Source: Escherichia phage vB_EcoS_ESCO3. From it: a stretch of DNA of 59,956 nt. The first letter of the stretch is position 1. Each line of letters starts with the position of its first letter. Location: the sequence record OM386652.1; one strand, written 5' to 3'. A program made the translations under genes and the position numbers. The notes under the pieces were generated by a model. The model worked only from the letters and a program-made list of their open reading frames with translations, was not told the DNA's origin and searched no databases. This document shows, piece after piece, positions 1-45,595 of this stretch.

Positions 1-35
1 TGTGGGCCAGTACAAACGTATTGGCCCACTTTTTA

Positions 36-2009
36 TTAAGCGGCGTATGCGAGTTTTTCCAGCAATTTTTCCGCTTTAGCTATGTACACTTCGTGGTTGA
101 GATCTGGCGGTAACTGGTCAGTGAGTTCCATCATAGGTTTACCCCCTGCTGTCTTACCGACACGACCACCGCTCTTAACTATCAGTATTTCAGGTACTTC
201 CTCTTTTGTATAGTACCAGCGAACAACTTTACCTAATGGCTCACTATTCCATGCAGCGCCACCGTTAGCTGTCTTAATGCAAACAAACTTACGAATGTCC
301 TGACACTCTGTGATAGTTTTAGCAATTGGTGTACCGTCACGAAGCAGATTAACAACTGCGTCCATAATGATCTCACCTTCCGCGTTCTTAGCTAGACCTG
401 TCTCTGCGAACCAACCTTTACGCTTGGCTTTACCATCCGCTTTGATTGCGACGTAGTTGTTGACGTTTGCAGAGTTAAGACGCAGGTACTGGTTCAGTTC
501 CATTTCAAAGCCAGTTGTCTCTTCCCACCACTTAATGATATCTGTCATTAATTGCTTCTTAGCTTTGCAAGGTTTAATAACGATACCATCCGTGTTAGCA
601 CTAACAACTTGAATACCGTTAAGCTCCAGTGTTTCAATGAGCATAAGCAGAGCTAACTGTCCTGTCAGCGTAGTCTGGATGATAAGGTGCGGTGCATACA
701 GAATAGAGAACGGTGAACCGAACTTACCATAAGAACCGTTGATAACGATCTTAAGAGTTTGTGCAGTCTTATCGTCATGAGCCATCTTAGCTGCAATACG
801 TCGTTCTACGATCTTAACGAAGATATCGATAAAGCGTGGGCCCAGGTGCTCAGGATACAGTTGCTGGTTAATGATACATATTGGGTAATATGACGTCACG
901 TCAGCATCCCACATCTCTTCATCGTCAGATGGTACAATCTCCATTAACTCTTCGCACGAGTGCAGACCACCGATACCCATGTTGTAAGTTGTCTGGTTAA
1001 TCGTAAACTTCAGAGAGTTCATCGTCGATGGTTGCTTAATTTTACCATCTTCTGCAACTCGGAAGTAACTGTCAAGCACCACCTGAAATACGGACTTCAT
1101 TAGTGGCGTTTGGAAACCTAACCACACTGGAGGATTGTATCTGAAGGTTCTGCCGACTTCCACCATACCTTTTTGTGGAACGAAGCCTAGCATTTCCTTC
1201 ATCTCGTGACGGATTACAGCTTCTGCAATCTGTGCATCAGATTTAGAGCGAAGGTCTACTTTATACTCTTCACTCATAATCTCACGTAGATGGATCTGCT
1301 CTTCCAGTGAGTTAAACAGAGCCATTGTTGTATCAAGGTCGTTAATACAGTAGAAGCGCACAATAGCAATCTGTTCTATGGATAACGCCCAATGCGGTGG
1401 GAATGGTAAGTCCTGAAGCTTCTGCATGTGCATACGGCCACCGTACAGTTTCAATGAACCGAAGCCAGGAGCTACTTCTTGAACGTCAATGTGGTCAATC
1501 CAAAACTGTTTTACACCAAAGCTGTTAAGAATGTCCCACGGAGCCCACTCTTCCTGGATCATCCTGTCACTTGCTTCTTTCAGCTTGTCAACAGTCAGAC
1601 CCGCAATGGCAAGGAATGTCATCGTATTATCGTAGTTTCTTGAGTTGAAACCAACGGTACGAAAGTTCTTCATTATCCATTCATACTTTTCCGTGTCAAG
1701 TGTCTGACCGGCAGTCATTTCTAGATAATAAACCTTACCGAACTTAACCCCTTTAAACGCTACAAGAAAATAGTTCTTATAACATTCGATATCGTATACG
1801 AACGTTTCTTGTGCAAAATACATCTCCACTAATTCACCGTCTGTCATACGCGGATCATTAGCTGCAAAACGCATTGCTGCATCAAGACCTGGAAGGTAGT
1901 CTGGTCGCTCCCATACCCTTTCAACTGGTTGACGTTTTACTTTCTGTTTCTTCTCTTTCTTAGCGGGAGGCAAATCCTCCCAAAAGAAACCAATAGCATC
2001 TTTTCTCAT
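36..2009 (-). CDS. DNA polymerase, family-B-like with 3'-5' exonuclease domain
   Basis: 657 aa. Exo I YDIEC, Exo II NSRNYD, Exo III YCINDLD; pol motif A DVTSYYPICII, motif B KIVINGSYGKFG, motif C NTDGI, resembling phi29-type PolB motifs. 4-bp overlap with the downstream clamp-like gene. Confidence 0.6.
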   Translation of the reverse strand: MRKDAIGFFWEDLPPAKKEKKQKVKRQPVERVWERPDYLPGLDAAMRFAANDPRMTDGELVEMYFAQETFVYDIECYKNYFLVAFKGVKFGKVYYLEMTAGQTLDTEKYEWIMKNFRTVGFNSRNYDNTMTFLAIAGLTVDKLKEASDRMIQEEWAPWDILNSFGVKQFWIDHIDVQEVAPGFGSLKLYGGRMHMQKLQDLPFPPHWALSIEQIAIVRFYCINDLDTTMALFNSLEEQIHLREIMSEEYKVDLRSKSDAQIAEAVIRHEMKEMLGFVPQKGMVEVGRTFRYNPPVWLGFQTPLMKSVFQVVLDSYFRVAEDGKIKQPSTMNSLKFTINQTTYNMGIGGLHSCEELMEIVPSDDEEMWDADVTSYYPICIINQQLYPEHLGPRFIDIFVKIVERRIAAKMAHDDKTAQTLKIVINGSYGKFGSPFSILYAPHLIIQTTLTGQLALLMLIETLELNGIQVVSANTDGIVIKPCKAKKQLMTDIIKWWEETTGFEMELNQYLRLNSANVNNYVAIKADGKAKRKGWFAETGLAKNAEGEIIMDAVVNLLRDGTPIAKTITECQDIRKFVCIKTANGGAAWNSEPLGKVVRWYYTKEEVPEILIVKSGGRVGKTAGGKPMMELTDQLPPDLNHEVYIAKAEKLLEKLAYAA

Positions 2010-3007
2010 AGACGAAATCCTACAATTACCCCACGTAGATTTTCACCATAAAAAATAATAGGAGTTGAAAGACCCCTTTCGTCCTTTTCATTGAAACGAG
2101 AAGCATCCCAATTCGTTGCAAGTCCTTTCAACTGCATAATAAGATCTATATTATACACGCCAATTGACTTAGATTCCCGGAACATTGCACTAGCACCGTC
2201 CAGCTCGTTGTAATGGGTACGCACAACACCATTTTCCATGTAAATACGCCCATCCCGCTCACAGAACGGTTTTATCTTTTCTAGGCAATTAAAAAGCTCA
2301 GTATCAAGCGTATAAACGTTGGCCCCATTTTCTGTACGCTCAATTATCTTATCAATGTTAGGCCACTTTAATTCCAGCAATTGTGTACGCAACCAGCAAC
2401 CGTCTTCGTAGTGAAATGTCATACTGGTATCTGTACATTGAATTCTTACTGGTGGTTTTTTAATACGCAATAATTCTTTTATGGCCATGCGTGGCACAAC
2501 ACAATCGACAGGGAATACAGCACCGAACCAATACTGTATAATACTAGCGTTATTGGTCGCGTACATGCTGCCCTGTTTTACCAGCACGCCGCAAGACCAC
2601 GGGCGGGAAGCATCATCGCTTATAAACGGCGTTACACGGCTTAAACCGTTGAGAAAAAGCTGACCGTCTATTTCGTGAATTGTTCCTTCTGGCTCTACGT
2701 GTGCAGTTGGTTTCTGAAGAGTATCCACACTAACCTTAAAGCCACCAGACTTAATGCTCAACTTACCGTTCGCTAACATTGTCATCTGTACAGCTTCGTC
2801 ACATGCTGCAATAGCCTTGAGCATCGGTTCAGCTTTAGGAGTACAGTCAATATTCAGTGGTACTGGACTACACAATGAAATAGTTCCGTTGAACCCGCGA
2901 ACAGTGCCATCAACAATACGGAAGTGAGTTAAACCTTCCTGAAGTTCTTTCTTAGCTACAGAGCCTGATACGAATTTAAGCGCGTCTAATAATTCAATCA
3001 CAAGCAA
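2006..3007 (-). CDS. putative sliding clamp (DnaN/beta-clamp-like) polymerase accessory protein
   Basis: 333 aa. N-terminus (LLDALKFVSGSVAKKE...DGTV) and C-terminal ...VGFRL resemble the bacterial beta clamp (which ends MPMRL). Translationally coupled to the polymerase gene. Weak, by-eye similarity only. Confidence 0.4.
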   Translation of the reverse strand: MLVIELLDALKFVSGSVAKKELQEGLTHFRIVDGTVRGFNGTISLCSPVPLNIDCTPKAEPMLKAIAACDEAVQMTMLANGKLSIKSGGFKVSVDTLQKPTAHVEPEGTIHEIDGQLFLNGLSRVTPFISDDASRPWSCGVLVKQGSMYATNNASIIQYWFGAVFPVDCVVPRMAIKELLRIKKPPVRIQCTDTSMTFHYEDGCWLRTQLLELKWPNIDKIIERTENGANVYTLDTELFNCLEKIKPFCERDGRIYMENGVVRTHYNELDGASAMFRESKSIGVYNIDLIMQLKGLATNWDASRFNEKDERGLSTPIIFYGENLRGVIVGFRL

Positions 3008-3533
3008 ATTCCTTATGTAATTTTGACCTAGTGAATTTCACAAAATTGTATGCTTTTTGCAAACCTTCCCAACTATATGGAAAACGTCTTCTTATTGTTT
3101 TGCCTTTAAATGTGATTCTAGCATCCCAATATGTATATCCACTAACGTCCAACTTTGAAATACCCTTTAGACCCGACGACCTATTATTACTTTGTACACA
3201 CCTATTACAATTATTCTCGGAATAGTTTGCAGCTCGCAAATTAGAAGGTCTATTATCTGTTTTTACTCTATTTATATGTTCAACGTGGGCTGGGTAATAC
3301 CCATGTGACATACAGAAACAGAGTCTATGAACTCTATAATTTTTATAAAGCAAGCCAACTTGCAGATAACCGTCCGAAGCTATACTACCAGCCGGAGAAC
3401 CTGCTATACAATTAGGAGCCCTTGTTATCCTGTTTATTAATTGTCCTGTATTCCTATCATAAATAAAGAATTTATCAAGTATTTCTTTACAAGGTTCATC
3501 AGACTGTATTTCAAAAGGTCTTGAGAGATCCAT
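2994..3533 (-). CDS. HNH homing endonuclease
   Basis: 179 aa. His/Asn-rich HNH core (YRVHRLCFCMSHGYYPAHVEHINRVKTDNRPSNLR) and a C-terminal basic DNA-binding-like region. AT-rich relative to its neighbours. Confidence 0.65.
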   Translation of the reverse strand: MDLSRPFEIQSDEPCKEILDKFFIYDRNTGQLINRITRAPNCIAGSPAGSIASDGYLQVGLLYKNYRVHRLCFCMSHGYYPAHVEHINRVKTDNRPSNLRAANYSENNCNRCVQSNNRSSGLKGISKLDVSGYTYWDARITFKGKTIRRRFPYSWEGLQKAYNFVKFTRSKLHKEFACD

Positions 3534-3541
3534 AAGTAACC

Positions 3542-4495
3542 TTACTCGTCAAATAAATCCTGGAGACGTTCGTTGAACTTCCCATTGTGGTTAGCAAGAA
3601 TCATAGCGTTGACCACACCATACGCCCATAAATTGTATGCAGCGCGTGATTCGTATATCGTTGAAAGTCGTTCGTATGTGAAACCTGACTCCTCTAAGTA
3701 GCGTAGAACGTTATTCTGTTCTATTTCTGAAAGGTTACAGATATGCTGCCCTTGATAGTGACGTGACGGAGACTTTTCAGACACCTGCATTGGACCCCAC
3801 TTAGGCGTCTCAATAGCACCAAACGCCGCAGATTGGATCCAGGAGGATGAGTCACAGGAGTACCACGGGTAACGCTCCATAAGTGGACGGGACGTAATAC
3901 CAAATCCATGGACTTTAATCTTAGCGCGTCCGCTACCGTCCACAAGGTGTTTATCCCATACCCTGTCCAACCATACTTGAAGTTGCTGCGTACTTGCTCC
4001 AACAAGACCACCGAGCGTAATGTACTCGTAGTTCCGTACATAATGGTCAAGATACTCAAAAGGTTCACCCGCGTGGAAGCATGGTAAAGGTCTTACACCT
4101 CTGGCTTCCATCTCTTCCTGGTTACGCCATGTCTGAAGTGGGTCTCCGATACCATCAAGTACGGACGCCATAAGCGAACCATCCTCTACACGGATGATAT
4201 CTATGTTTCGTTGGATGTAATCACAGTATTCTTTAACTGATAACGTAACTCCCAAAGTGTAAGCTGAGAACGCTCCGGAGTCGAGGAATATCTTGGCCCC
4301 ATCGGCACGCATGGCATCGACATAGGATTGCTTTCCAACATAGTGCCAGGATTCAAGAATGTTTGGAATATTCTCGACAACACGTTTTTCTTGTTCGTTG
4401 AGTTTAACATAGCGGTTCATTCCTGGTTTATAGCTGTTCGTATATACGGCAGCCATATAAATCTGAAAGGTATAGTTGATATCTTGTCTGTGCAT
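3542..4495 (-). CDS. dpdA: DpdA-like DNA-guanine transglycosylase (TGT superfamily)
   Basis: 317 aa. TGT-like motif FLDSGAFS; sits next to folE/queD/queC/queE. ATG at 4495 with an upstream AGGTGA ribosome-binding site on the minus strand. Confidence 0.7.
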   Translation of the reverse strand: MHRQDINYTFQIYMAAVYTNSYKPGMNRYVKLNEQEKRVVENIPNILESWHYVGKQSYVDAMRADGAKIFLDSGAFSAYTLGVTLSVKEYCDYIQRNIDIIRVEDGSLMASVLDGIGDPLQTWRNQEEMEARGVRPLPCFHAGEPFEYLDHYVRNYEYITLGGLVGASTQQLQVWLDRVWDKHLVDGSGRAKIKVHGFGITSRPLMERYPWYSCDSSSWIQSAAFGAIETPKWGPMQVSEKSPSRHYQGQHICNLSEIEQNNVLRYLEESGFTYERLSTIYESRAAYNLWAYGVVNAMILANHNGKFNERLQDLFDE

Positions 4496-10798: not shown

Positions 10799-12757
10799 TT
10801 ACCAGTAAGAATAGGTTGATNAGNNGNANAANNGNAATACTGTCGTACGGGAATCAGTCTGCTCATCTTCATCAAACTTATTCGTATAACTGCCACCAAA
10901 CTGGGACAGACCATTCATTGCTGCAATTTGTACAACCGGACGTTCGTTTGTTGCTTCTTTCTTACCGAACTCACTACCGTCATAACAACTATTCAACACT
11001 TCGGGGAACTTACCCTTCAAGTTGACATAAATGTGCGTCGGTACACGAAGCTGGCTGACCACATTGAGGGCTTCGTCAATGTTAGCTGGGATTGCCAAGC
11101 TGCAATGCTCGCGCCACCAGTTACGCGCTTTCTTACCTGCAAAGCCAGTATGGAACAGGCAGATGTATTGTTGAATAGTTTGTGAGCCACAAAGATAATC
11201 AACACGAAGTGTCGGTGGCTTAGAACGGTCACCCCTGTTCTCGTGACGATAGTAACTCACCATATCAACTTTCAACACTTCAGTAACTGGTAAATCATTC
11301 TTGATAATAGCTTTCGTACTTGCACTCGCCATCAGTTTCTTCTCAAAAGTAAACTCATGACCGCAATAACCAGCACGACACGCTTTATTATTTGTAATGG
11401 TATAACCTAATCCTTGTAGATAGAGTATTTCTTCATGAGACATGCTGCTTGTGTCGAATGGTTTTAACCCACCACAGTAGCGAACTGACGCATGGTTCCA
11501 TGTCTTACATACCGGGCATTCTTTGACAGGTGCAGCGGATTTTCCTTTCTGTCCTGGACGCTTAGGAATTACAGGGTCGTTAATAGGCCCAAGACGTCTC
11601 GTATTGCCTGCGTAATCCAATACAAGACAGTTCTGTTTGTGCGAAGCCGAGATAGCTTGCAAACGACCTTCCGTTGTGGTCAGATCAAAACCATCAGCAT
11701 AATCAGGTCGAGTACCACGTCCAAGCATTTGAACCCATAGGCGGGAAGATTGAGACGGTCGCATACCAATTATTAAGTCAAGACCCGGATGGTCAAAACC
11801 TGTCGTTAATACGTTGTTGTTCGCTATTGCCTGCAAACGACCAGCTTTAAAGTCAATAAGGTACTGGTCACGCAAGGCTTTCGGTGTATCACCAGTTACA
11901 ACTTCACAACTAATACCGCGCTCATTGAGATAGTCTTTGACATCTTTTGCATGGTCTACACCAGCGCAAAAGATAAGCCAACTCATTCTATTCTCTTCTT
12001 CCGCAATACTAATTGCATCATCTAATAAATGGCGCGTTACATCAGGGTCATTTACAACCTTCTGAAGTTCACTTTCAATGAACTCACCGCCTCGAGTATG
12101 AACACCACTTACATCATACTCTTTCTTTGTTTTACGTGGTACTAACGGAACCAGATAACCTTCATCAATGAACCAGTTGAAGCACTCTACGGTACACGCG
12201 TTAAATACAATTTCATCAAATAGAGCGTTAGGTGCATAATCATCCTTGATAATAGAACCAAAACCAAGACGCCAACTTGTAGCAGTGAGACCGATAATCT
12301 TTAGATATGGATTCTTTTCACGAATCTGCGCAAAGAACTTCTGATAACTTGTTTGCTGATTTGGACTAATAAGGTCACATTCGTCAACTATAATAATATC
12401 AACGTCCTCAAAGTATTTAGCTTGTTTTGCAACAGACTGAATACCTGCGAACGTTATCATTGCGTTCTTATCTTTGCGACCCATACCAGCACTATAAATA
12501 CCAGTCGGTGCTTCAGGCCACAACTTCTTGAATTTATCGTGGTTCTGGTCTATCAATTCTTTTACGTGAGTAATTACCATCATGCGGGTACTACCCCAAT
12601 TATCATGAATTGTCTTTAATAGACCAGCAATTACAAGGGACTTACCAGTCCCTGTAGGCAACAAGATAACAGGATTTCCTGACTTTTCACCATGCTTGAT
12701 GAAATAGCGCAATGTACTATTTACAGCTTCTTGCTGATAATCACGTAGTTTGAACAT
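10799..12757 (-). CDS. SF2 DNA helicase (DEAD/DEAH-box type) with C-terminal Cys-rich region
   Basis: 652 aa. Walker A LLPTGTGKS, DExD box IIVDECDL, arginine finger QMLGRGTRP. The 3' end of the gene spans ambiguous bases (N at 10821-10835), so the C-terminus is uncertain. Confidence 0.7.
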   Translation of the reverse strand: MFKLRDYQQEAVNSTLRYFIKHGEKSGNPVILLPTGTGKSLVIAGLLKTIHDNWGSTRMMVITHVKELIDQNHDKFKKLWPEAPTGIYSAGMGRKDKNAMITFAGIQSVAKQAKYFEDVDIIIVDECDLISPNQQTSYQKFFAQIREKNPYLKIIGLTATSWRLGFGSIIKDDYAPNALFDEIVFNACTVECFNWFIDEGYLVPLVPRKTKKEYDVSGVHTRGGEFIESELQKVVNDPDVTRHLLDDAISIAEEENRMSWLIFCAGVDHAKDVKDYLNERGISCEVVTGDTPKALRDQYLIDFKAGRLQAIANNNVLTTGFDHPGLDLIIGMRPSQSSRLWVQMLGRGTRPDYADGFDLTTTEGRLQAISASHKQNCLVLDYAGNTRRLGPINDPVIPKRPGQKGKSAAPVKECPVCKTWNHASVRYCGGLKPFDTSSMSHEEILYLQGLGYTITNNKACRAGYCGHEFTFEKKLMASASTKAIIKNDLPVTEVLKVDMVSYYRHENRGDRSKPPTLRVDYLCGSQTIQQYICLFHTGFAGKKARNWWREHCSLAIPANIDEALNVVSQLRVPTHIYVNLKGKFPEVLNSCYDGSEFGKKEATNERPVVQIAAMNGLSQFGGSYTNKFDEDEQTDSRTTVXXXXXXSTYSYW

Positions 12758-17017: not shown

Positions 17018-17443
17018 TTAACCCTTCTTAACAGCGATCTTAACCTGCGGAGAACCTGGAGTTGTGGTCACACATTCGTCAAAGATGGCCAACTGTTCAG
17101 CTGTGAGCTTACGATATGCAGCCACACGGAGTTCTACTTTAGTTTCAGTAACTTCGTTGACATCCACACCAGCTTCAATAAGGTCTGGCAGGATCTGACT
17201 AAAGATCGCCTTATCAACTTTACGCGTATAAGGTTGAGTAACAACAAGATCATCACCTGTATCAAGTTTAATCTTGTTAGTATTTTCGTTAAGACCATCT
17301 GGAAAGAAGACGCTAACCACACTTTGGCGCAGTGCGCGTTCTTGTGCTTGAACTTTGGCTAATTCTTCTTTCTTAGAATACCAGTTGTAAAGGAGTTCGT
17401 ACTTCTGCTCTTCCGTTAAGTTCATTTCTGGTAACTGGACCAT
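17018..17443 (-). CDS. hypothetical protein
   Basis: 141-aa ORF in the leftward block. Confidence 0.45.
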   Translation of the reverse strand: MVQLPEMNLTEEQKYELLYNWYSKKEELAKVQAQERALRQSVVSVFFPDGLNENTNKIKLDTGDDLVVTQPYTRKVDKAIFSQILPDLIEAGVDVNEVTETKVELRVAAYRKLTAEQLAIFDECVTTTPGSPQVKIAVKKG

Positions 17444-21194: not shown

Positions 21195-21222
21195 ATGGGC
21201 GCATATAGCGCCCATTTTTTTT
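21195..21222 (+). terminator. rho-independent terminator
   Basis: 8-bp stem ATGGGCGC / GCGCCCAT with loop ATATA, followed by a T8 run. Confidence 0.65.
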
Positions 21223-23770
21223 ATAGCTTAATAATCTTCTCCATGCGTTCGATATCCACTAAATAACACTTCATCCTCGGTGGTACAAAATCAGGACCGA
21301 ATAAACTTGAGAAGTCCATAGGCCTCATTTCAGCAAGAACTTCCATAGACATCAGACCATAAATTGTATTGTCTATGACCTGCAATATGTTGTCGTTTCT
21401 TGTCTGCTTGAACGCTTTAAATTGCCTACAATAAGTACATAAATCACTCCGTGTAACTATAAACGAGTCCTTAAACATTGGGAATTTATCATACACATAA
21501 GCCTTCACTTCCCCGTCCAAGAACCTTTTTATAGTCGCGAGCATTATCTTCTCACGGCTTGTACTGTCTGTAGACCCAATTTGCCCACTATTACGCTTCT
21601 CTAGGAAACGCTCGTTACCCTGATCGATAAATGACTCAGCCCAACGATAATGTTCCATAGTAACAACGGGTCGTTCACTGTTATCCGCAACAGCAAGAAG
21701 AGAAGCTATACGCAATACCTTCAACGCCTTCCTTGTGTACATCTGACGAATTACTTCGTCTTGCACCTGCTCACCATCATTGCCGCTGTTCAGGAACTTC
21801 GCAACAACATTATCAAGATTATCAAACGCTTCGTGTACCTCTGCTTCCATTTCAACATAACACGGAGCAGTCCCTGACATAATGCGCACAGCTTGTTTAT
21901 AGATAGCTCCAATAGTGCGCAGAATTGCTTCTGGATATTCCAGGAGCATACTCTTATTCATCAACGGGCGGTTAGCTGTACATTCCCATGCGATAATACG
22001 GGACATGAAGCCACTAGACATCATACGGTCATCCACGTTCCCGTAAAATTCATCTGGTGTCGTTTCACCTGCAAAACTATACGCCTTGACCTTACCGCCA
22101 GCAGTCGTATTATCTTTACTAGAGTGCTTTGAACCGCCAGAGAAAGCATAGAAATGCCCCTTGTCATAAAGGGAAAGCATTTCATCCATAATGTCTTTAG
22201 CTTTACCGACTTCCATCTTACCGTTACGGAAAAACGCACCGACTTCAGTCTTATAGTTAATGGATGAGCCACAAGACATAACGGATGTATCCATTATGAC
22301 GTCCTTGCGCAATGCAGCATCGGACGCATAGGTACTTGTATCTAAGACACGTTCAATACCAAATATCTGCTGGCCATCTTGACCGCCATAATTGGATACT
22401 TGAGAAAGAATAGTTTCAATGTTAGAGCGAAACGCTTCTTTACCAATACCAGAACGCGCAATTAATACAAAGTAGTTATTCAGACCACTTCGTGTGACTG
22501 TGTTCCACGCCTTACCGCACATACCACTAAATAAAGCAAGAGCAGACAGAATACTAATGTCTTTAATAGGCAACAAGCTCGCTTTATACATGTTACGCGC
22601 AACCTCACCCATAAAGCCCGGAGGCCAAGCCAAACCGTCTGCCTGCTCTTCAGTGTAATTGCCATCTGTGGTCAACACTTCTTCAGGTGGGCGTTCTGGT
22701 GTAGTTGCTTGACGTAGTTTTTCCGTGCGCTCTATAGCTGCATTAACGTTATTCTGAACTATCTGCATAAGTCCCATAGATTTAACATGGGCATCATAGC
22801 GATAGTTGCGAATCATTCTATCCAGGTGATACGGACGTTTGATTTTTTCACCAGGCAGACGACGGGAATCATCGTAACGACTACTCATTGGTGAATACAT
22901 GAACAGACGTCTTACCTGGAAATTGTACTTACTCTTAAAGCAAAGAAAGTCAATTAATGCAAACTCTGCTTCAGACTGAGAAGGGAAACAACGTTCGCCA
23001 ATAGAAGTATCAACTTCTTCAGCTCTCCAACGACCTTCCCATAGCTGCTTAAACAATGTTCCGTTTTCTTGTTCGCACAACTGAATATAGACATCCTGGT
23101 CTTCCATTGCATATGGGTCGTTACTAAAATCTTCTTCAGTAAGTTCCAGCATTTGGAAGCCGTCTGACTCATTAATCTCACTCATCTCAGACATAAGTTG
23201 ATGAATGAGATTAGCGATATACCCTTCGCTTTCACTGCCTGGAGCACCAGACACAGTGCGCGGAGTAATATCCCAGTGATCGCCTGTACAGATAATAAAA
23301 CGATACTGTGAATACACTTCCACACCATCACGGCGCTTACCAGCCTGAGGGATGGAATAAATCCATGTGTGCAACCCATCACCGCTTCTGGAAATTTCCG
23401 TATAGCTATGGAACGATTCAACAATCTTCTTATATCGCTCACCAGCAACTTTCTTTTCCATTTCAGACATGGTATCTTTAATGTCCATGTCGATACAACA
23501 GAACGGGTCACTTGGAAGTAGATAGAAACCTAAACGCAAGTTATGGCCAATCTCGTTATAATAACGAACGCAGCGTTCAGCATCTTCAAAAGACATAAGT
23601 AAATGCAGGTTAGACGGTTTCTTATCGTTACCGTCTTTACGAAGTGGGACCATATCCCCTAAATCATCGTCCCATACATAAGGTTGTTTTTCTGATGATG
23701 TACCCGGATGGAAACCGCAGACAGCCCACTGTTCGTATTGTTTAATTTCTTGAGGAAAAAGTTCCAGCAT
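21221..23770 (-). CDS. putative DNA primase (AEP primase-polymerase domain) with C-terminal NTPase-like region
   Basis: 849 aa. N-terminal AEP-like motifs CCIDMDIKD (DxD) and SRSGDGLHTW (SGxGxH); later a P-loop-like ARSGIGKEA. Domain assignment is by eye. Confidence 0.5.
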   Translation of the reverse strand: MLELFPQEIKQYEQWAVCGFHPGTSSEKQPYVWDDDLGDMVPLRKDGNDKKPSNLHLLMSFEDAERCVRYYNEIGHNLRLGFYLLPSDPFCCIDMDIKDTMSEMEKKVAGERYKKIVESFHSYTEISRSGDGLHTWIYSIPQAGKRRDGVEVYSQYRFIICTGDHWDITPRTVSGAPGSESEGYIANLIHQLMSEMSEINESDGFQMLELTEEDFSNDPYAMEDQDVYIQLCEQENGTLFKQLWEGRWRAEEVDTSIGERCFPSQSEAEFALIDFLCFKSKYNFQVRRLFMYSPMSSRYDDSRRLPGEKIKRPYHLDRMIRNYRYDAHVKSMGLMQIVQNNVNAAIERTEKLRQATTPERPPEEVLTTDGNYTEEQADGLAWPPGFMGEVARNMYKASLLPIKDISILSALALFSGMCGKAWNTVTRSGLNNYFVLIARSGIGKEAFRSNIETILSQVSNYGGQDGQQIFGIERVLDTSTYASDAALRKDVIMDTSVMSCGSSINYKTEVGAFFRNGKMEVGKAKDIMDEMLSLYDKGHFYAFSGGSKHSSKDNTTAGGKVKAYSFAGETTPDEFYGNVDDRMMSSGFMSRIIAWECTANRPLMNKSMLLEYPEAILRTIGAIYKQAVRIMSGTAPCYVEMEAEVHEAFDNLDNVVAKFLNSGNDGEQVQDEVIRQMYTRKALKVLRIASLLAVADNSERPVVTMEHYRWAESFIDQGNERFLEKRNSGQIGSTDSTSREKIMLATIKRFLDGEVKAYVYDKFPMFKDSFIVTRSDLCTYCRQFKAFKQTRNDNILQVIDNTIYGLMSMEVLAEMRPMDFSSLFGPDFVPPRMKCYLVDIERMEKIIKL

Positions 23771-45166: not shown

Positions 45167-45595
45167 ATGTCTTCAGAAAATAAACAAGTATCTACTGAAG
45201 TTGCAAAGAAAGCTGTTGGTGCATCTTTCCGTGACTTTAACTTGAAAAAGAAATTAGAAAACGCTCCGCTGCTGCATTATCCGCTTGTTTTTCCAGGACA
45301 GGGCGATACAGGTCACTGGTTGAAAATTCGCAACCGCCATAGCGAAGAATTCCGTCAAGCAGATCTAAAAGCACAACGTCAGATTAGTGCGCTTGTCGTT
45401 GCTAATGGATCTTTTGAAAAGATTGATAAAGACATGCTTGATGATATCAATATGCGAGCGTTCTGTAAACTGGTTGCTTCGTGGAGCTTCGAAGAAGAAT
45501 GCAACGAAGACAATCTTATTGAATTCTTTAATAATAACCCGTTTGCATATGACGACATTAATCGTCTGGCAGCGCAAGATTCCCTTTTTTTCTAA
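45167..45595 (+). CDS. tail assembly chaperone (lambda gpG analogue)
   Basis: 142 aa, directly upstream of the tape measure gene; ends at a TTTTTTC slippery heptamer. Confidence 0.6.
   Translation: MSSENKQVSTEVAKKAVGASFRDFNLKKKLENAPLLHYPLVFPGQGDTGHWLKIRNRHSEEFRQADLKAQRQISALVVANGSFEKIDKDMLDDINMRAFCKLVASWSFEEECNEDNLIEFFNNNPFAYDDINRLAAQDSLFF

Follow-up and report, generated by a model that had tools for sequence, protein, structure and literature searches.

A family B DNA polymerase gene overlapping that of a predicted DnaN-type sliding clamp in Escherichia phage vB_EcoS_ESCO3, with conserved terminal peptides as candidate clamp-docking tails

Introduction

The closest described relatives of the locus analyzed here are found in the 9g-like phages, namely 9g (gp01/gp02), JenP2, JenP1, JenK1 and SE1, which possess the same genes at 95–97% nucleotide identity, with gene order and overlap unchanged. 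The products are labeled "DNA polymerase" and "DNA polymerase processivity factor / replicative clamp" in the RefSeq records of these phages, and the paper describing the genome of 9g names the pair "two DNA polymerase subunits" (PMC4276943). No biochemical characterization of the polymerase or clamp proteins of these five phages was found in the literature searched. As a replication module the pair is already known and annotated in 9g-like phages, and what is new here are the conserved terminal peptides.

Other systems resemble the pair in part. The combination of Escherichia coli Pol II with DnaN is alike in joining a family B enzyme, a three-domain clamp and a short terminal linear motif, and Pol II ranks near the top of the structural and sequence matches of the phage polymerase. 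However, Pol II is a repair/translesion enzyme that uses the clamp and loader of the cell and carries its motif at the C-terminus (PMC11139829), whereas the phage pair would be a virus-encoded replicase with a candidate motif that is N-terminal and without Gln, a clamp that shares only approximately 14% identity with DnaN, and no loader recognizable among the early-region proteins scanned. The gp43-gp45-gp44/62 system of phages T4 and RB69 is similarly a phage replicase that combines a PolB with a phage-encoded clamp. Here gp43 docks by a terminal hydrophobic/acidic tail that follows a basic stretch, and the clamp has further clients (late transcription). It differs in that T4 gp45 has two domains, forms a trimer like PCNA and is served by a dedicated loader (PMC4889955), while the clamp of the present phage is predicted to be of the three-domain bacterial type. 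Streptococcus phage Dp-1 is alike in possessing both DnaN and the 7-deazaguanine enzyme DpdA, the latter ending in a clamp-binding-like QRRLF. It differs in that its DnaN is canonical and its own, accompanied by DnaX and HolA loader subunits, and in that a terminator and a promoter separate dpdA from dnaN.

Genome Organization

The window (the whole stretch of 59,956 nucleotides of phage vB_EcoS_ESCO3, OM386652.1, that was analyzed) matched 17 records over its positions 1–3600 with 95.2–97.4% identity across the alignable 85% and with the same gene order, which places it in the genus Nonagvirus (Queuovirinae). The two open reading frames proposed in the original prediction are real and on the minus strand, the second being 2006..3007 (333 aa) when read from its first TTG (Table 1). 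They are the final two genes of a leftward early operon with the order dpdA, HNH, clamp, polymerase; the clamp gene, which had been described as downstream, is in fact upstream of the polymerase gene in the direction of transcription. The GC-rich hairpin beyond them sits where the leftward early and rightward late genes converge and is a probable terminator; a "terminator" feature is annotated beneath the nucleotide match to this region in phages HdSG1, HdK1 and SP8.

Table 1. Features of the replication locus and of the adjacent genes in the window.
Feature	Position	Strand	Remarks
GC-rich hairpin, 12 bp	2..29	.	Just beyond polymerase stop; probable terminator
Family B DNA polymerase gene, 657 aa, ATG start	36..2009	minus	Last gene of leftward early operon
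Polymerase motif C, NTDG (residues 472–475)	585..596	minus	Sequence and alignment
Polymerase motif B, KIVINGSYGKFG (residues 420–431)	717..752	minus	Sequence and alignment
Polymerase motif A, DVTSYYP (residues 370–376)	882..902	minus	Sequence and alignment
Exo I motif, D73-I-E75	1785..1793	minus	Sequence and alignment
Polymerase codons 14–32, Lys/Arg-rich flexible linker, PPAKKEKKQKVKRQPVERV	1914..1970	minus	pI 10.7; 8 K+R in 19 residues
Polymerase codons 1–13, MRKDAIGFFWEDL, disordered tail with D-x-x-G-phi-F-W-x-D	1971..2009	minus	Candidate clamp-binding motif
ATGA stop/start overlap of clamp and polymerase genes	2006..2009	minus	Read from sequence
Predicted DnaN-type three-domain sliding clamp gene, 331 aa	2006..3001	minus	GTG start at 3001
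AGGA, Shine-Dalgarno-like, within clamp gene	2018..2021	minus	8 nt upstream of polymerase ATG
HNH endonuclease gene	2994..3533	minus	Pfam HNH_3, E 1e-10; between dpdA and clamp gene
dpdA, 7-deazaguanine DNA transglycosylase homolog	3542..4495	minus	PHROG 887, E 2e-98
DpdA C-terminal tail, LQDLFDE	3545..3565	minus	Putative clamp-binding tail

In contrast to the 9g-like phages named above, the window has the HNH gene inserted behind dpdA, ahead of the clamp gene. Phages 9g and JenP2 are without it, 85% of the query being covered there as two pieces, and in relatives free of this insertion dpdA lies directly upstream of the clamp gene. The HNH gene, whose stop codon overlaps the clamp start, is no part of the replicase. 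The DpdA of the window is 100% identical to that of 9g. The order dpdA, clamp, polymerase is kept in approximately 80 loci, and the clamp gene precedes the polymerase gene in all 75 loci having both. The module had been expected to be uncommon, a view that does not hold given its prior annotation in RefSeq, the occurrence of the clamp in 320 phage records (tblastn) and the 2,983 clamp representatives at 50% identity obtained by profile search.

At the junction of the two genes (cgtctATGAgaaaa), the polymerase ATG (2009–2007) and the clamp TGA (2008–2006) share the 4-nt overlap that had been predicted. This overlap, together with the AGGA inside the clamp gene, may couple translation of the polymerase to that of the clamp; as the clamp gene is upstream, any coupling would run from clamp to polymerase. 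A stop/start overlap of -4, -1 or -11 was observed in 43 of the 75 related loci (-4 in 22 and -1 in 19), and in 21 of them over 100 nt separate the two genes, so that coupling is dispensable. Regarding the clamp start, the GTG at 3001 has AAGGAA 7 nt upstream whereas the TTG at 3007 is almost without a spacer, and for this reason the GTG is preferred as the likely start, giving 331 aa. In relatives without the HNH insertion the clamp has an ATG start and is one residue shorter (MDLLDAL...). The clamp of the 9g-like relatives begins ATG-GAT (MDLL...) and that of the window GTG-ATT-GAA (MIELL...), the start being altered in the window because the HNH gene stands between dpdA and the clamp gene.

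DNA Polymerase

The polymerase is a compact, divergent yet complete family B enzyme that belongs to the classical, primer-dependent type and includes a domain for 3'-5' proofreading. In an alignment of 46 homologs (mean column identity of 49%), the residues of Exo I (DxE), Exo II (Nx2-4[FY]D) and Exo III (Yx3D) are invariant, represented here by D73-x-E75, N122..D127 and Y220..D224. The same is true for polymerase motifs A, B and C, which read DVTSYYP, KIVINGSYG and NTDG (canonical DxxSLYPS, KxxxNSxYG and DTDS), with motif B aligning to that of Sulfolobus solfataricus PolB1 and E. coli Pol II. All the polymerase and DEDDy exonuclease motifs named in the original prediction were therefore found. 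In motif C an invariant Asn replaces the first Asp of the canonical DTD while the second (D474) is kept; another PolB group also lacks this first Asp (PMC7544198). Membership of the PolB_SITDG group was considered because of the NTDG motif and was rejected, that group being cyanobacterial and algal, while phage homologs, namely those of BcepGomr and Halfdan, were placed in the "PolBmain" group (Kazlauskas et al., 2020; PMC7544198 and its supplement).

The polymerase matched PHROG 1252 at 6e-229 and missed the Pfam gathering scores of DNA_pol_B (11.7 bits, with 23 required) and DNA_pol_B_2 (15.6 bits, with 25.8 required); it belongs to a divergent clade outside the reach of these models. Profile matches in the PDB were to S. 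solfataricus PolB1 (2.9e-8), E. coli Pol II (1.5e-5) and pol alpha, rather than to family A. Structure comparison found the overall fold nearest to solved PolBs, the nearest structures being archaeal and eukaryotic enzymes and those of RB69 and E. coli Pol II. The phi29-like character first ascribed to the enzyme is not favored by these matches. A protein-primed enzyme of the phi29 type, which would have pPolBs as its closest relatives in a genome without genes for RNA priming and lagging-strand synthesis, was also rejected.

Sliding Clamp

Structure prediction identifies the 331-aa protein as a three-domain DnaN-type sliding clamp. The AF2 model (pLDDT 93.4, pTM 0.87) shows a helix-strand pattern repeated threefold, corresponding to three domains, and Foldseek matched it full-length to bacterial beta clamps with E of about 1e-19 and TM of 0.72–0.79, all 50 top matches being DnaN or DnaN-containing complexes. 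The suggestion of a DnaN-type clamp, for which a non-clamp fold would have been unfavorable, is thus favored by the fold that was returned. A clamp of the T4 gp45/PCNA type (two-domain protomer, trimer) was rejected in view of the three domains and of the 50 top matches. The protein may form a head-to-tail dimer ring like that of DnaN.

A match to PHROG 947 "processivity factor" was obtained at E 1e-81, and no Pfam family, including DNA_pol3_beta, was matched at E up to 1. Support from sequence alone for the clamp identity was weak (E 1e-4 to 1e-5), with profile matches in the PDB to beta clamps 8dt6 (1.3e-4) and 4trt (1.5e-4) and an hhalign comparison to E. coli DnaN at E 2.5e-5 and 75% probability. 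In hhalign and MAFFT alignments, at an identity of only about 14–21%, the E. coli pocket residues R152, T172, P242 and R246-V247 (list from PMC11139829) align with phage R133, T149, P214 and K218-I219, and the C-terminal stretch V-V-M-P-M-R-L of E. coli DnaN, from the same list of pocket residues, aligns with V-I-V-G-F-R-L. Residues R133, T149, P214 and G328 are invariant within the phage clamp family.

Terminal Peptides of the Polymerase and DpdA

Residues 1–13 of the polymerase model have a pLDDT below 50, and the chain is coil without secondary structure to about residue 30. The N-terminal motif (DAIGFFWED in the window) occurs in every one of the 75 related loci, with G7, W10 and D12 invariant in the 46-sequence alignment, and the linker following it is variable in sequence yet always basic among homologs. 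From this pattern, the disordered N-terminus probably docks on the clamp, with D-A-I-G-F-F-W-E-D tethering the polymerase to the domain II/III pocket via the Lys/Arg-rich linker, although the motif could bind another partner, e.g., the primase-helicase or SSB. Proteins bind the clamp through short linear motifs, which are anchored in subsite I by their LF moiety (PMC11139829). The polymerase motif is without the Gln of the canonical Q-phi-x-[LM]-[FL]; by analogy, it would resemble the N-terminal, disordered motif of E. coli Hda and the AMSLF of the delta subunit, which is also without Gln (PMC11139829).

Similar motifs adjoining basic linkers occur at the ends of the polymerases of distant phages having both clamp and PolB, namely MFFDDL in Halfdan, MSFLFDGF in S144, a C-terminal AALSFF in DLP_1 and Kaya, and both an N-terminal MSLFD and a C-terminal KKSSLFD in IMEAB3. 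The last of these can be compared with the tail of the RB69 polymerase, which reportedly reads KKASLFDMFDF. Candidate docking peptides for the clamp are MRKDAIGFFWEDL (polymerase, FF) and the LF-bearing KFNERLQDLFDE.

The DpdA family has a tail with the logo F-x3-[VI]-Q-E-L-F-COOH, in which L is invariant and F is found in 65 of 67 unique sequences. This conserved QELF-type ending suggests a clamp-tethered insertion of 7-deazaguanine; the C-terminal ...Q-E/D-L-F would place the base-exchange enzyme on newly replicated DNA, with the clamp as a hub. Modification enzymes riding on a clamp have an analogy in DNMT1 or UNG2 on PCNA. That the clamp is a docking hub for both polymerase and DpdA, physically coupling the exchange of guanine for 7-deazaguanine to the fork and to clamps left over on nascent DNA, is proposed tentatively and is judged to have somewhat less than an even chance of being correct. 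Wild-type DNA has dG+ in place of about 25–27% of G (PMC6884629). Tail and clamp are found together mostly inside one clade, and much of their correlation is therefore a single evolutionary event. Independent instances resembling this pattern are Dp-1, whose DpdA ends in QRRLF and which has its own DnaN and loader, and phiSM, where the endings SVNLF and QVNLF belong to the two neighbors of DpdA in a Que cluster that holds a stand-alone DnaN. A tail of this kind was seen in none of seven DpdA homologs from five actinophages, of which Rosebush only was checked directly for absence of a clamp. Counting against the hub is the DpdA of Cellulophaga phage phiSM, which is without the tail even though phiSM has a DnaN. 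No paper connecting DpdA with a clamp was found in the literature searched, and a PDB sequence search with DpdA gave no match at E up to 0.01.

Other LF-type sequences were noted in the window. A 141-aa protein (17018..17443) has EQLAIFDE and the primase-helicase has DFSSLFGPDF, each near the C-terminus; both are possible clamp clients, and the relatives found were all at least 96% identical. The ending QDSLFF of a tail-assembly chaperone (45167..45595) was dismissed as a chance LF match. Outside the window, QLHLF near the N-terminus of the ParB-like protein of PenguinLover67 was set aside because it probably forms the initial strand of the ParB fold.

Discussion

Taken as a whole, the explanation that we regard as probable is that the two genes represent the phage's own replicase core, with the ring, N-terminal docking, translational coupling and DpdA hub proposed above. 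Scanning the early genes against Pfam and PHROG identified an SF2 helicase, a DUF669 SSB, Sak4, a Cas4-like nuclease, a ligase, RNase H and an AEP primase-helicase, and no AAA+ clamp-loader-like protein was recognizable among the early-region proteins scanned. A ring clamp with no recognizable loader counts against this explanation; given this result, we propose that the ring may be loaded by the host DnaX complex or else self-assemble. The same finding would agree with the clamp-like protein being a loader-independent processivity factor that sits directly on DNA as a monomer or open dimer and retains the polymerase on the template, as do herpesvirus UL42/UL44, which need no loader; loaders accompany fewer than half of viral processivity factors (Kazlauskas et al., 2016; PMC4889955). 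Clamps with a Lys/Arg-rich N-terminal extension in the distant relatives DLP_1, Kaya, Halfdan and IMEAB3 also agree with it. However, the protein matches DnaN over its full length and in all three domains, it appears to keep the C-terminal and pocket motifs of DnaN, its pI of 6.0 is mildly acidic like that of ring clamps and it has no basic extension in the window, and the infected cell offers the host DnaX complex. On balance, loader independence is considered unlikely.

The main client of the clamp could instead be DpdA and the DNA-modification machinery, or late transcription as for T4 gp45, with its adjacency to the polymerase being incidental. The position of dpdA directly upstream of the clamp gene and its conserved LF tail point in this direction, as does phiSM, in which a stand-alone DnaN lies at the end of a Que/DpdA cluster with no annotated polymerase and two neighbors of DpdA end in SVNLF and QVNLF. 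In contrast, a clamp gene followed by a PolB gene, often overlapping, is found in dpdA-less phages of approximately 43 kb (Septimatrevirus, Lokivirus and Loughboroughvirus). As the pair persists without dpdA, the polymerase is the constant partner of the clamp, and we hold this alternative to be very improbable. A protein-primed, phi29-like and intrinsically processive PolB, beside a protein unrelated to processivity, is effectively refuted.

For the 9g-like phages, structure prediction confirms the "processivity factor" label as sound. A large clade of siphovirus PolBs without a clamp loader has as its standard partner a bacterial-type three-domain clamp, rather than one of the T4/PCNA type. 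If both the polymerase and DpdA tails do dock on the clamp, this would provide a simple, testable mechanism by which 7-deazaguanine modification is targeted to fresh phage DNA, and it would account for the stand-alone clamp genes found in some phage modification clusters.

Organization of the polymerase and clamp genes

The two overlapping ORFs of the original prediction are real, and both are located on the minus strand with a 4-nt stop/start overlap in which the clamp TGA meets the polymerase ATG (...cgtctATGAgaaaa...), with an AGGA 8 nt 5' of this ATG. The clamp ORF had been called downstream, which is true only in plus-strand coordinates, as transcription puts the clamp first. The clamp likely starts at GTG 3001, with AAGGAA 7 nt upstream, giving a protein of 331 aa. 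The polymerase stop is closely followed by a strong GC-rich hairpin (12 bp) with a run of T; leftward early and rightward late transcription converge at this point, and the hairpin is probably a bidirectional terminator.

Features of the window discussed in the text
Feature	Position	Strand	Remarks
Hairpin	2-29		
Polymerase ORF	36..2009	-	657 aa
Clamp ORF, longest form	2006..3007	-	333 aa from first possible start
HNH endonuclease gene	2994-3533	-	Inserted between dpdA and clamp; absent from 9g and JenP2
dpdA	3542..4495	-	
DpdA C-terminal tail, clamp-binding-like	3545-3565	-	Ends ...NERLQDLFDE; motif LQDLFDE
SF2 helicase	10799..12757		
PHROG 2480 protein	17018-17443	-	141 aa
Primase-helicase	21221-23770	-	
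Tail-assembly chaperone ORF	45167-45595	+	

Nucleotides 1-3600 of the window are matched at 95.2-97.4% nucleotide identity by 17 Nonagvirus/9g-like records, among them JenP2, JenP1, 9g, JenK1, SE1, BRET and FritzHoffmann, and the unmatched 15% of this query is one inserted gene. The record of 9g has an identical start point and is collinear. RefSeq labels the two genes as "DNA polymerase" and "DNA polymerase processivity factor" (with the note "replicative clamp"), followed upstream of the clamp by dpdA ("queuine tRNA-ribosyltransferase") and then 7-deazaguanine synthesis genes, and in the original description of 9g they appear as "two DNA polymerase subunits" (PMC4276943).

In the window the HNH gene has its stop within an overlap with the start of the clamp gene, whose product has an altered N-terminus (MDLLDALKFVQGS to MIELLDALKFVSGS), as would be expected from homing with co-conversion. 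In 9g, which is without this insertion, the clamp gene begins ATG GAT TTA (MDLLDAL...). Salmonella phage SE1 possesses a different HNH-like ORF of 186 aa (31% identical to that of the window), which is located between clamp and polymerase (L002 3506-4066) with 4-nt overlaps on both sides.

Identity of the polymerase

The polymerase motifs of the original prediction and Exo I-III are all present in the 657-aa ORF and are invariant across 46 homologues (mean column identity 49%). Motif C deviates in reading N-T-D instead of D-T-D, its Asn also being invariant in these homologues. Pfam gave only sub-threshold PolB matches, and PHROG 1252 ("DNA polymerase") matched end to end. When a profile of the 46 homologues was compared with the PDB, family B enzymes only were returned (S. 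solfataricus PolB1, 2.9e-8; E. coli Pol II, 1.5e-5; pol alpha, ~5e-5), with all listed matches spanning motifs B and C. The AF2 model was confident (pLDDT 90.4, pTM 0.85), and the best 50 Foldseek matches listed were all PolBs (E 4e-15 to 3e-12), including archaeal enzymes, Pol II, pol alpha and those of ASFV and HSV. The polymerase is therefore a family B enzyme without special affinity for phi29; of the "phi29-like PolB motifs" of the original prediction, the family stands and the phi29 affinity does not. Kazlauskas et al. (2020) also place the BcepGomr and Halfdan homologues in "PolBmain", not in the protein-primed cluster (PMC7544198 supplement).

The same genome encodes an AEP primase fused to a DUF3987 helicase, RNase H, an ATP-dependent ligase, an SF2 helicase, a DUF669 SSB, Sak4 and a Cas4-like nuclease, a gene set that is that of a primer-dependent replisome. 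Scattered N bases occur at 10821-10835 and 29555 of the window and give six X residues close to the C-terminus when the SF2 helicase is translated.

Identity and loading of the clamp

At the sequence level, evidence for homology of the clamp with DnaN is weak but consistent. Pfam gave no match, PHROG 947 ("processivity factor") matched at 1e-81, the clamp profile found beta clamps in the PDB at 1.3e-4 and 1.5e-4, and hhalign against E. coli DnaN gave an E of 2.5e-5 over 273 columns. The AF2 model was very confident (pLDDT 93.4, pTM 0.87), with the clamp domain repeated threefold, and Foldseek aligned it full length with DnaN of E. coli, Rickettsia, Pseudomonas and Streptococcus (E ~1e-19, TM 0.72-0.79) at only 13-18% identity. 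A DnaN fold rather than a non-clamp fold was thus obtained and the assignment stands, the modelled protein being of the three-domain bacterial type and not of the two-domain T4/PCNA type. In its core, a PolB with a DnaN-like clamp, the original prediction is right.

Residues of the E. coli DnaN peptide-binding pocket, as listed in a review (PMC11139829), align with conserved phage positions (R152/R133, T172/T149, P242/P214, R246-V247/K218-I219 and C-terminal VVMPMRL/VIVGFRL), and R133, T149, P214 and G328 are invariant within the family; this is suggestive of a functional pocket.

Among the early proteins, scans with Pfam and PHROG found no AAA+ clamp-loader-like protein. Streptococcus phage Dp-1 differs in this, as it encodes HolA, DnaX and a further gamma/tau-like protein beside its DnaN. 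For loading, the obvious candidate is the DnaX complex of the host. Alternatively, the clamp could self-assemble or work in an open, UL42/UL44-like mode (cf. PMC4889955). Its pI of 6.0 and full DnaN architecture favour a ring.

The clamps of the Septimatrevirus phages DLP_1 (L090 5863-7005) and Kaya (L101 2878-4008) carry a Lys/Arg-rich N-terminal extension and also a C-terminal extension ending in ...NYEDDIPF. This ending matches the C-terminal tip of E. coli SSB (DDDIPF), to which the clamp-loader subunit chi binds, as do other partners; the extension is a possible route for recruiting host factors.

Distribution and linkage

The module had been thought uncommon, but tblastn with the clamp retrieved 320 phage records (hosts including Pseudomonas, Escherichia, Stenotrophomonas, Vibrio, Xanthomonas and Rhizobium), a clamp profile search of 1.84 billion representatives gave 2,983 clusters at E <=1e-3 and 882 at E <=1e-30, and the polymerase search gave at least about 8,000 matches. 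Previously annotated in near-identical published genomes and widespread, the PolB and clamp module is an ordinary finding.

The clamp alignment retrieved 80 IMG/VR loci, in which the order dpdA, clamp, polymerase was essentially universal. Among the 75 of these holding both clamp and polymerase, the genes overlap by 4 nt (ATGA-type) in 22, by 1 nt (TAATG) in 19 and by 11 nt in two; gaps of 0-20 nt occur in four, of 21-100 nt in seven and of >100 nt, wide enough to hold an inserted ORF, in 21. Overlap of the two genes, which makes their translational coupling probable, is the default state but dispensable.

Candidate partners of the clamp

Residues 1-30 of the polymerase model are coil, with pLDDT <50 at residues 1-13. 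G7, W10 and D12 are invariant in the 46-homologue alignment, D-x-x-G-phi-[FW]-W occurs within the first ~10 residues in all 75 loci, and residues 14-32 are Lys/Arg-rich (pI 10.7). A conserved hydrophobic/aromatic peptide in a disordered terminus, with a basic linker next to it, is what characterizes clamp-binding short linear motifs. In known motifs an LF pair anchors in subsite I, that of Hda is in a disordered N-terminus, and that of the delta subunit (AMSLF) is without Gln (PMC11139829). Similar peptides are found at polymerase termini of distant clamp and PolB phages without dpdA, namely IMEAB3 (N-terminal MSLFD..., C-terminal ...KKSSLFD), Halfdan (MFFDDL...), S144 (MSFLFDGF...), and DLP_1 and Kaya (C-terminal ...KKAKTAALSFF). 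The clamp-binding tail of RB69 polymerase is ...KKASLFDMFDF. We judge it likely, if not strongly so, that the polymerase N-terminus docks on the clamp.

The most interesting lead is the DpdA tail, a candidate clamp-binding peptide. Among 67 unique DpdA sequences from clamp-containing loci (L004-L083) the C-terminal logo is F-x3-[VI]-Q-E-L-F-COOH, with L invariant, F in 65, Q in 52 and E in 48, and the ~10 preceding positions are poorly conserved. Alignments to distant DpdAs by tblastn end at ~residue 292, which places the tail outside the conserved core. Its Gln sits one residue nearer LF than in the canonical Q-phi-x-L-F. Dp-1, a phage with a canonical DnaN and a loader of its own, has a DpdA ending ...KNRQRRLF. 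Such a tail is lacking in all seven DpdA homologues examined in five actinophages (Rosebush, Typha, Mufasa8, PenguinLover67 and, with its two paralogues, Megan); a direct check for a clamp, covering Rosebush of these five, detected none with a phage-clamp HMM or E. coli DnaN. Mycobacteriophages, with DpdA in 56 records, are not among the ten commonest genera of the clamp search. As the 9g-like clade inherits tail and clamp together, this comparison amounts to only about three independent positive lineages and a few negative ones.

In Cellulophaga phage phiSM the Que/DpdA cluster (L100 37103-42092) has at its end the gene of a canonical DnaN (1.4e-10 by phmmer with E. coli DnaN), and the genome has no annotated DNA polymerase. 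The phiSM DpdA is without the tail. On either side of its dpdA are a ParB-like gene and a gene for a hypothetical protein of 217 aa, whose products end ...SVNLF and ...QVNLF, respectively, which read as canonical clamp-binding motifs; only three phiSM ORFs of >=80 aa end in [LM]F plus <=2 residues, the third being an antisense ORF. In actinophages and phiSM, a ParB-like gene, not that of a clamp, always adjoins dpdA (Rosebush, Typha, Mufasa8, PenguinLover67 and phiSM; L085, L086, L089, L096 and L088), and the ParB-like protein may be an alternative DNA-tracking partner.

Among other early proteins of the window, the PHROG 2480 protein has ...EQLAIFDE... 24 residues from its end and the primase-helicase ...DFSSLFGPDF... 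~30 residues from its end; these are candidate clamp-motif-like peptides, and the relatives retrieved were only near-identical. The tail-assembly chaperone ORF, ending ...AAQDSLFF and adjoining the expected G/GT frameshift region, was rejected as a chance look-alike, a terminal LF alone being weak evidence for clamp binding.

No paper in the searchable literature brings DpdA and a clamp together in this way, and such a link is not discussed in the main paper on 7-deazaguanines in phages. We propose, as new to that literature, that the clamp may be a hub for both the N-terminal tail of the polymerase and the C-terminal tail of DpdA.
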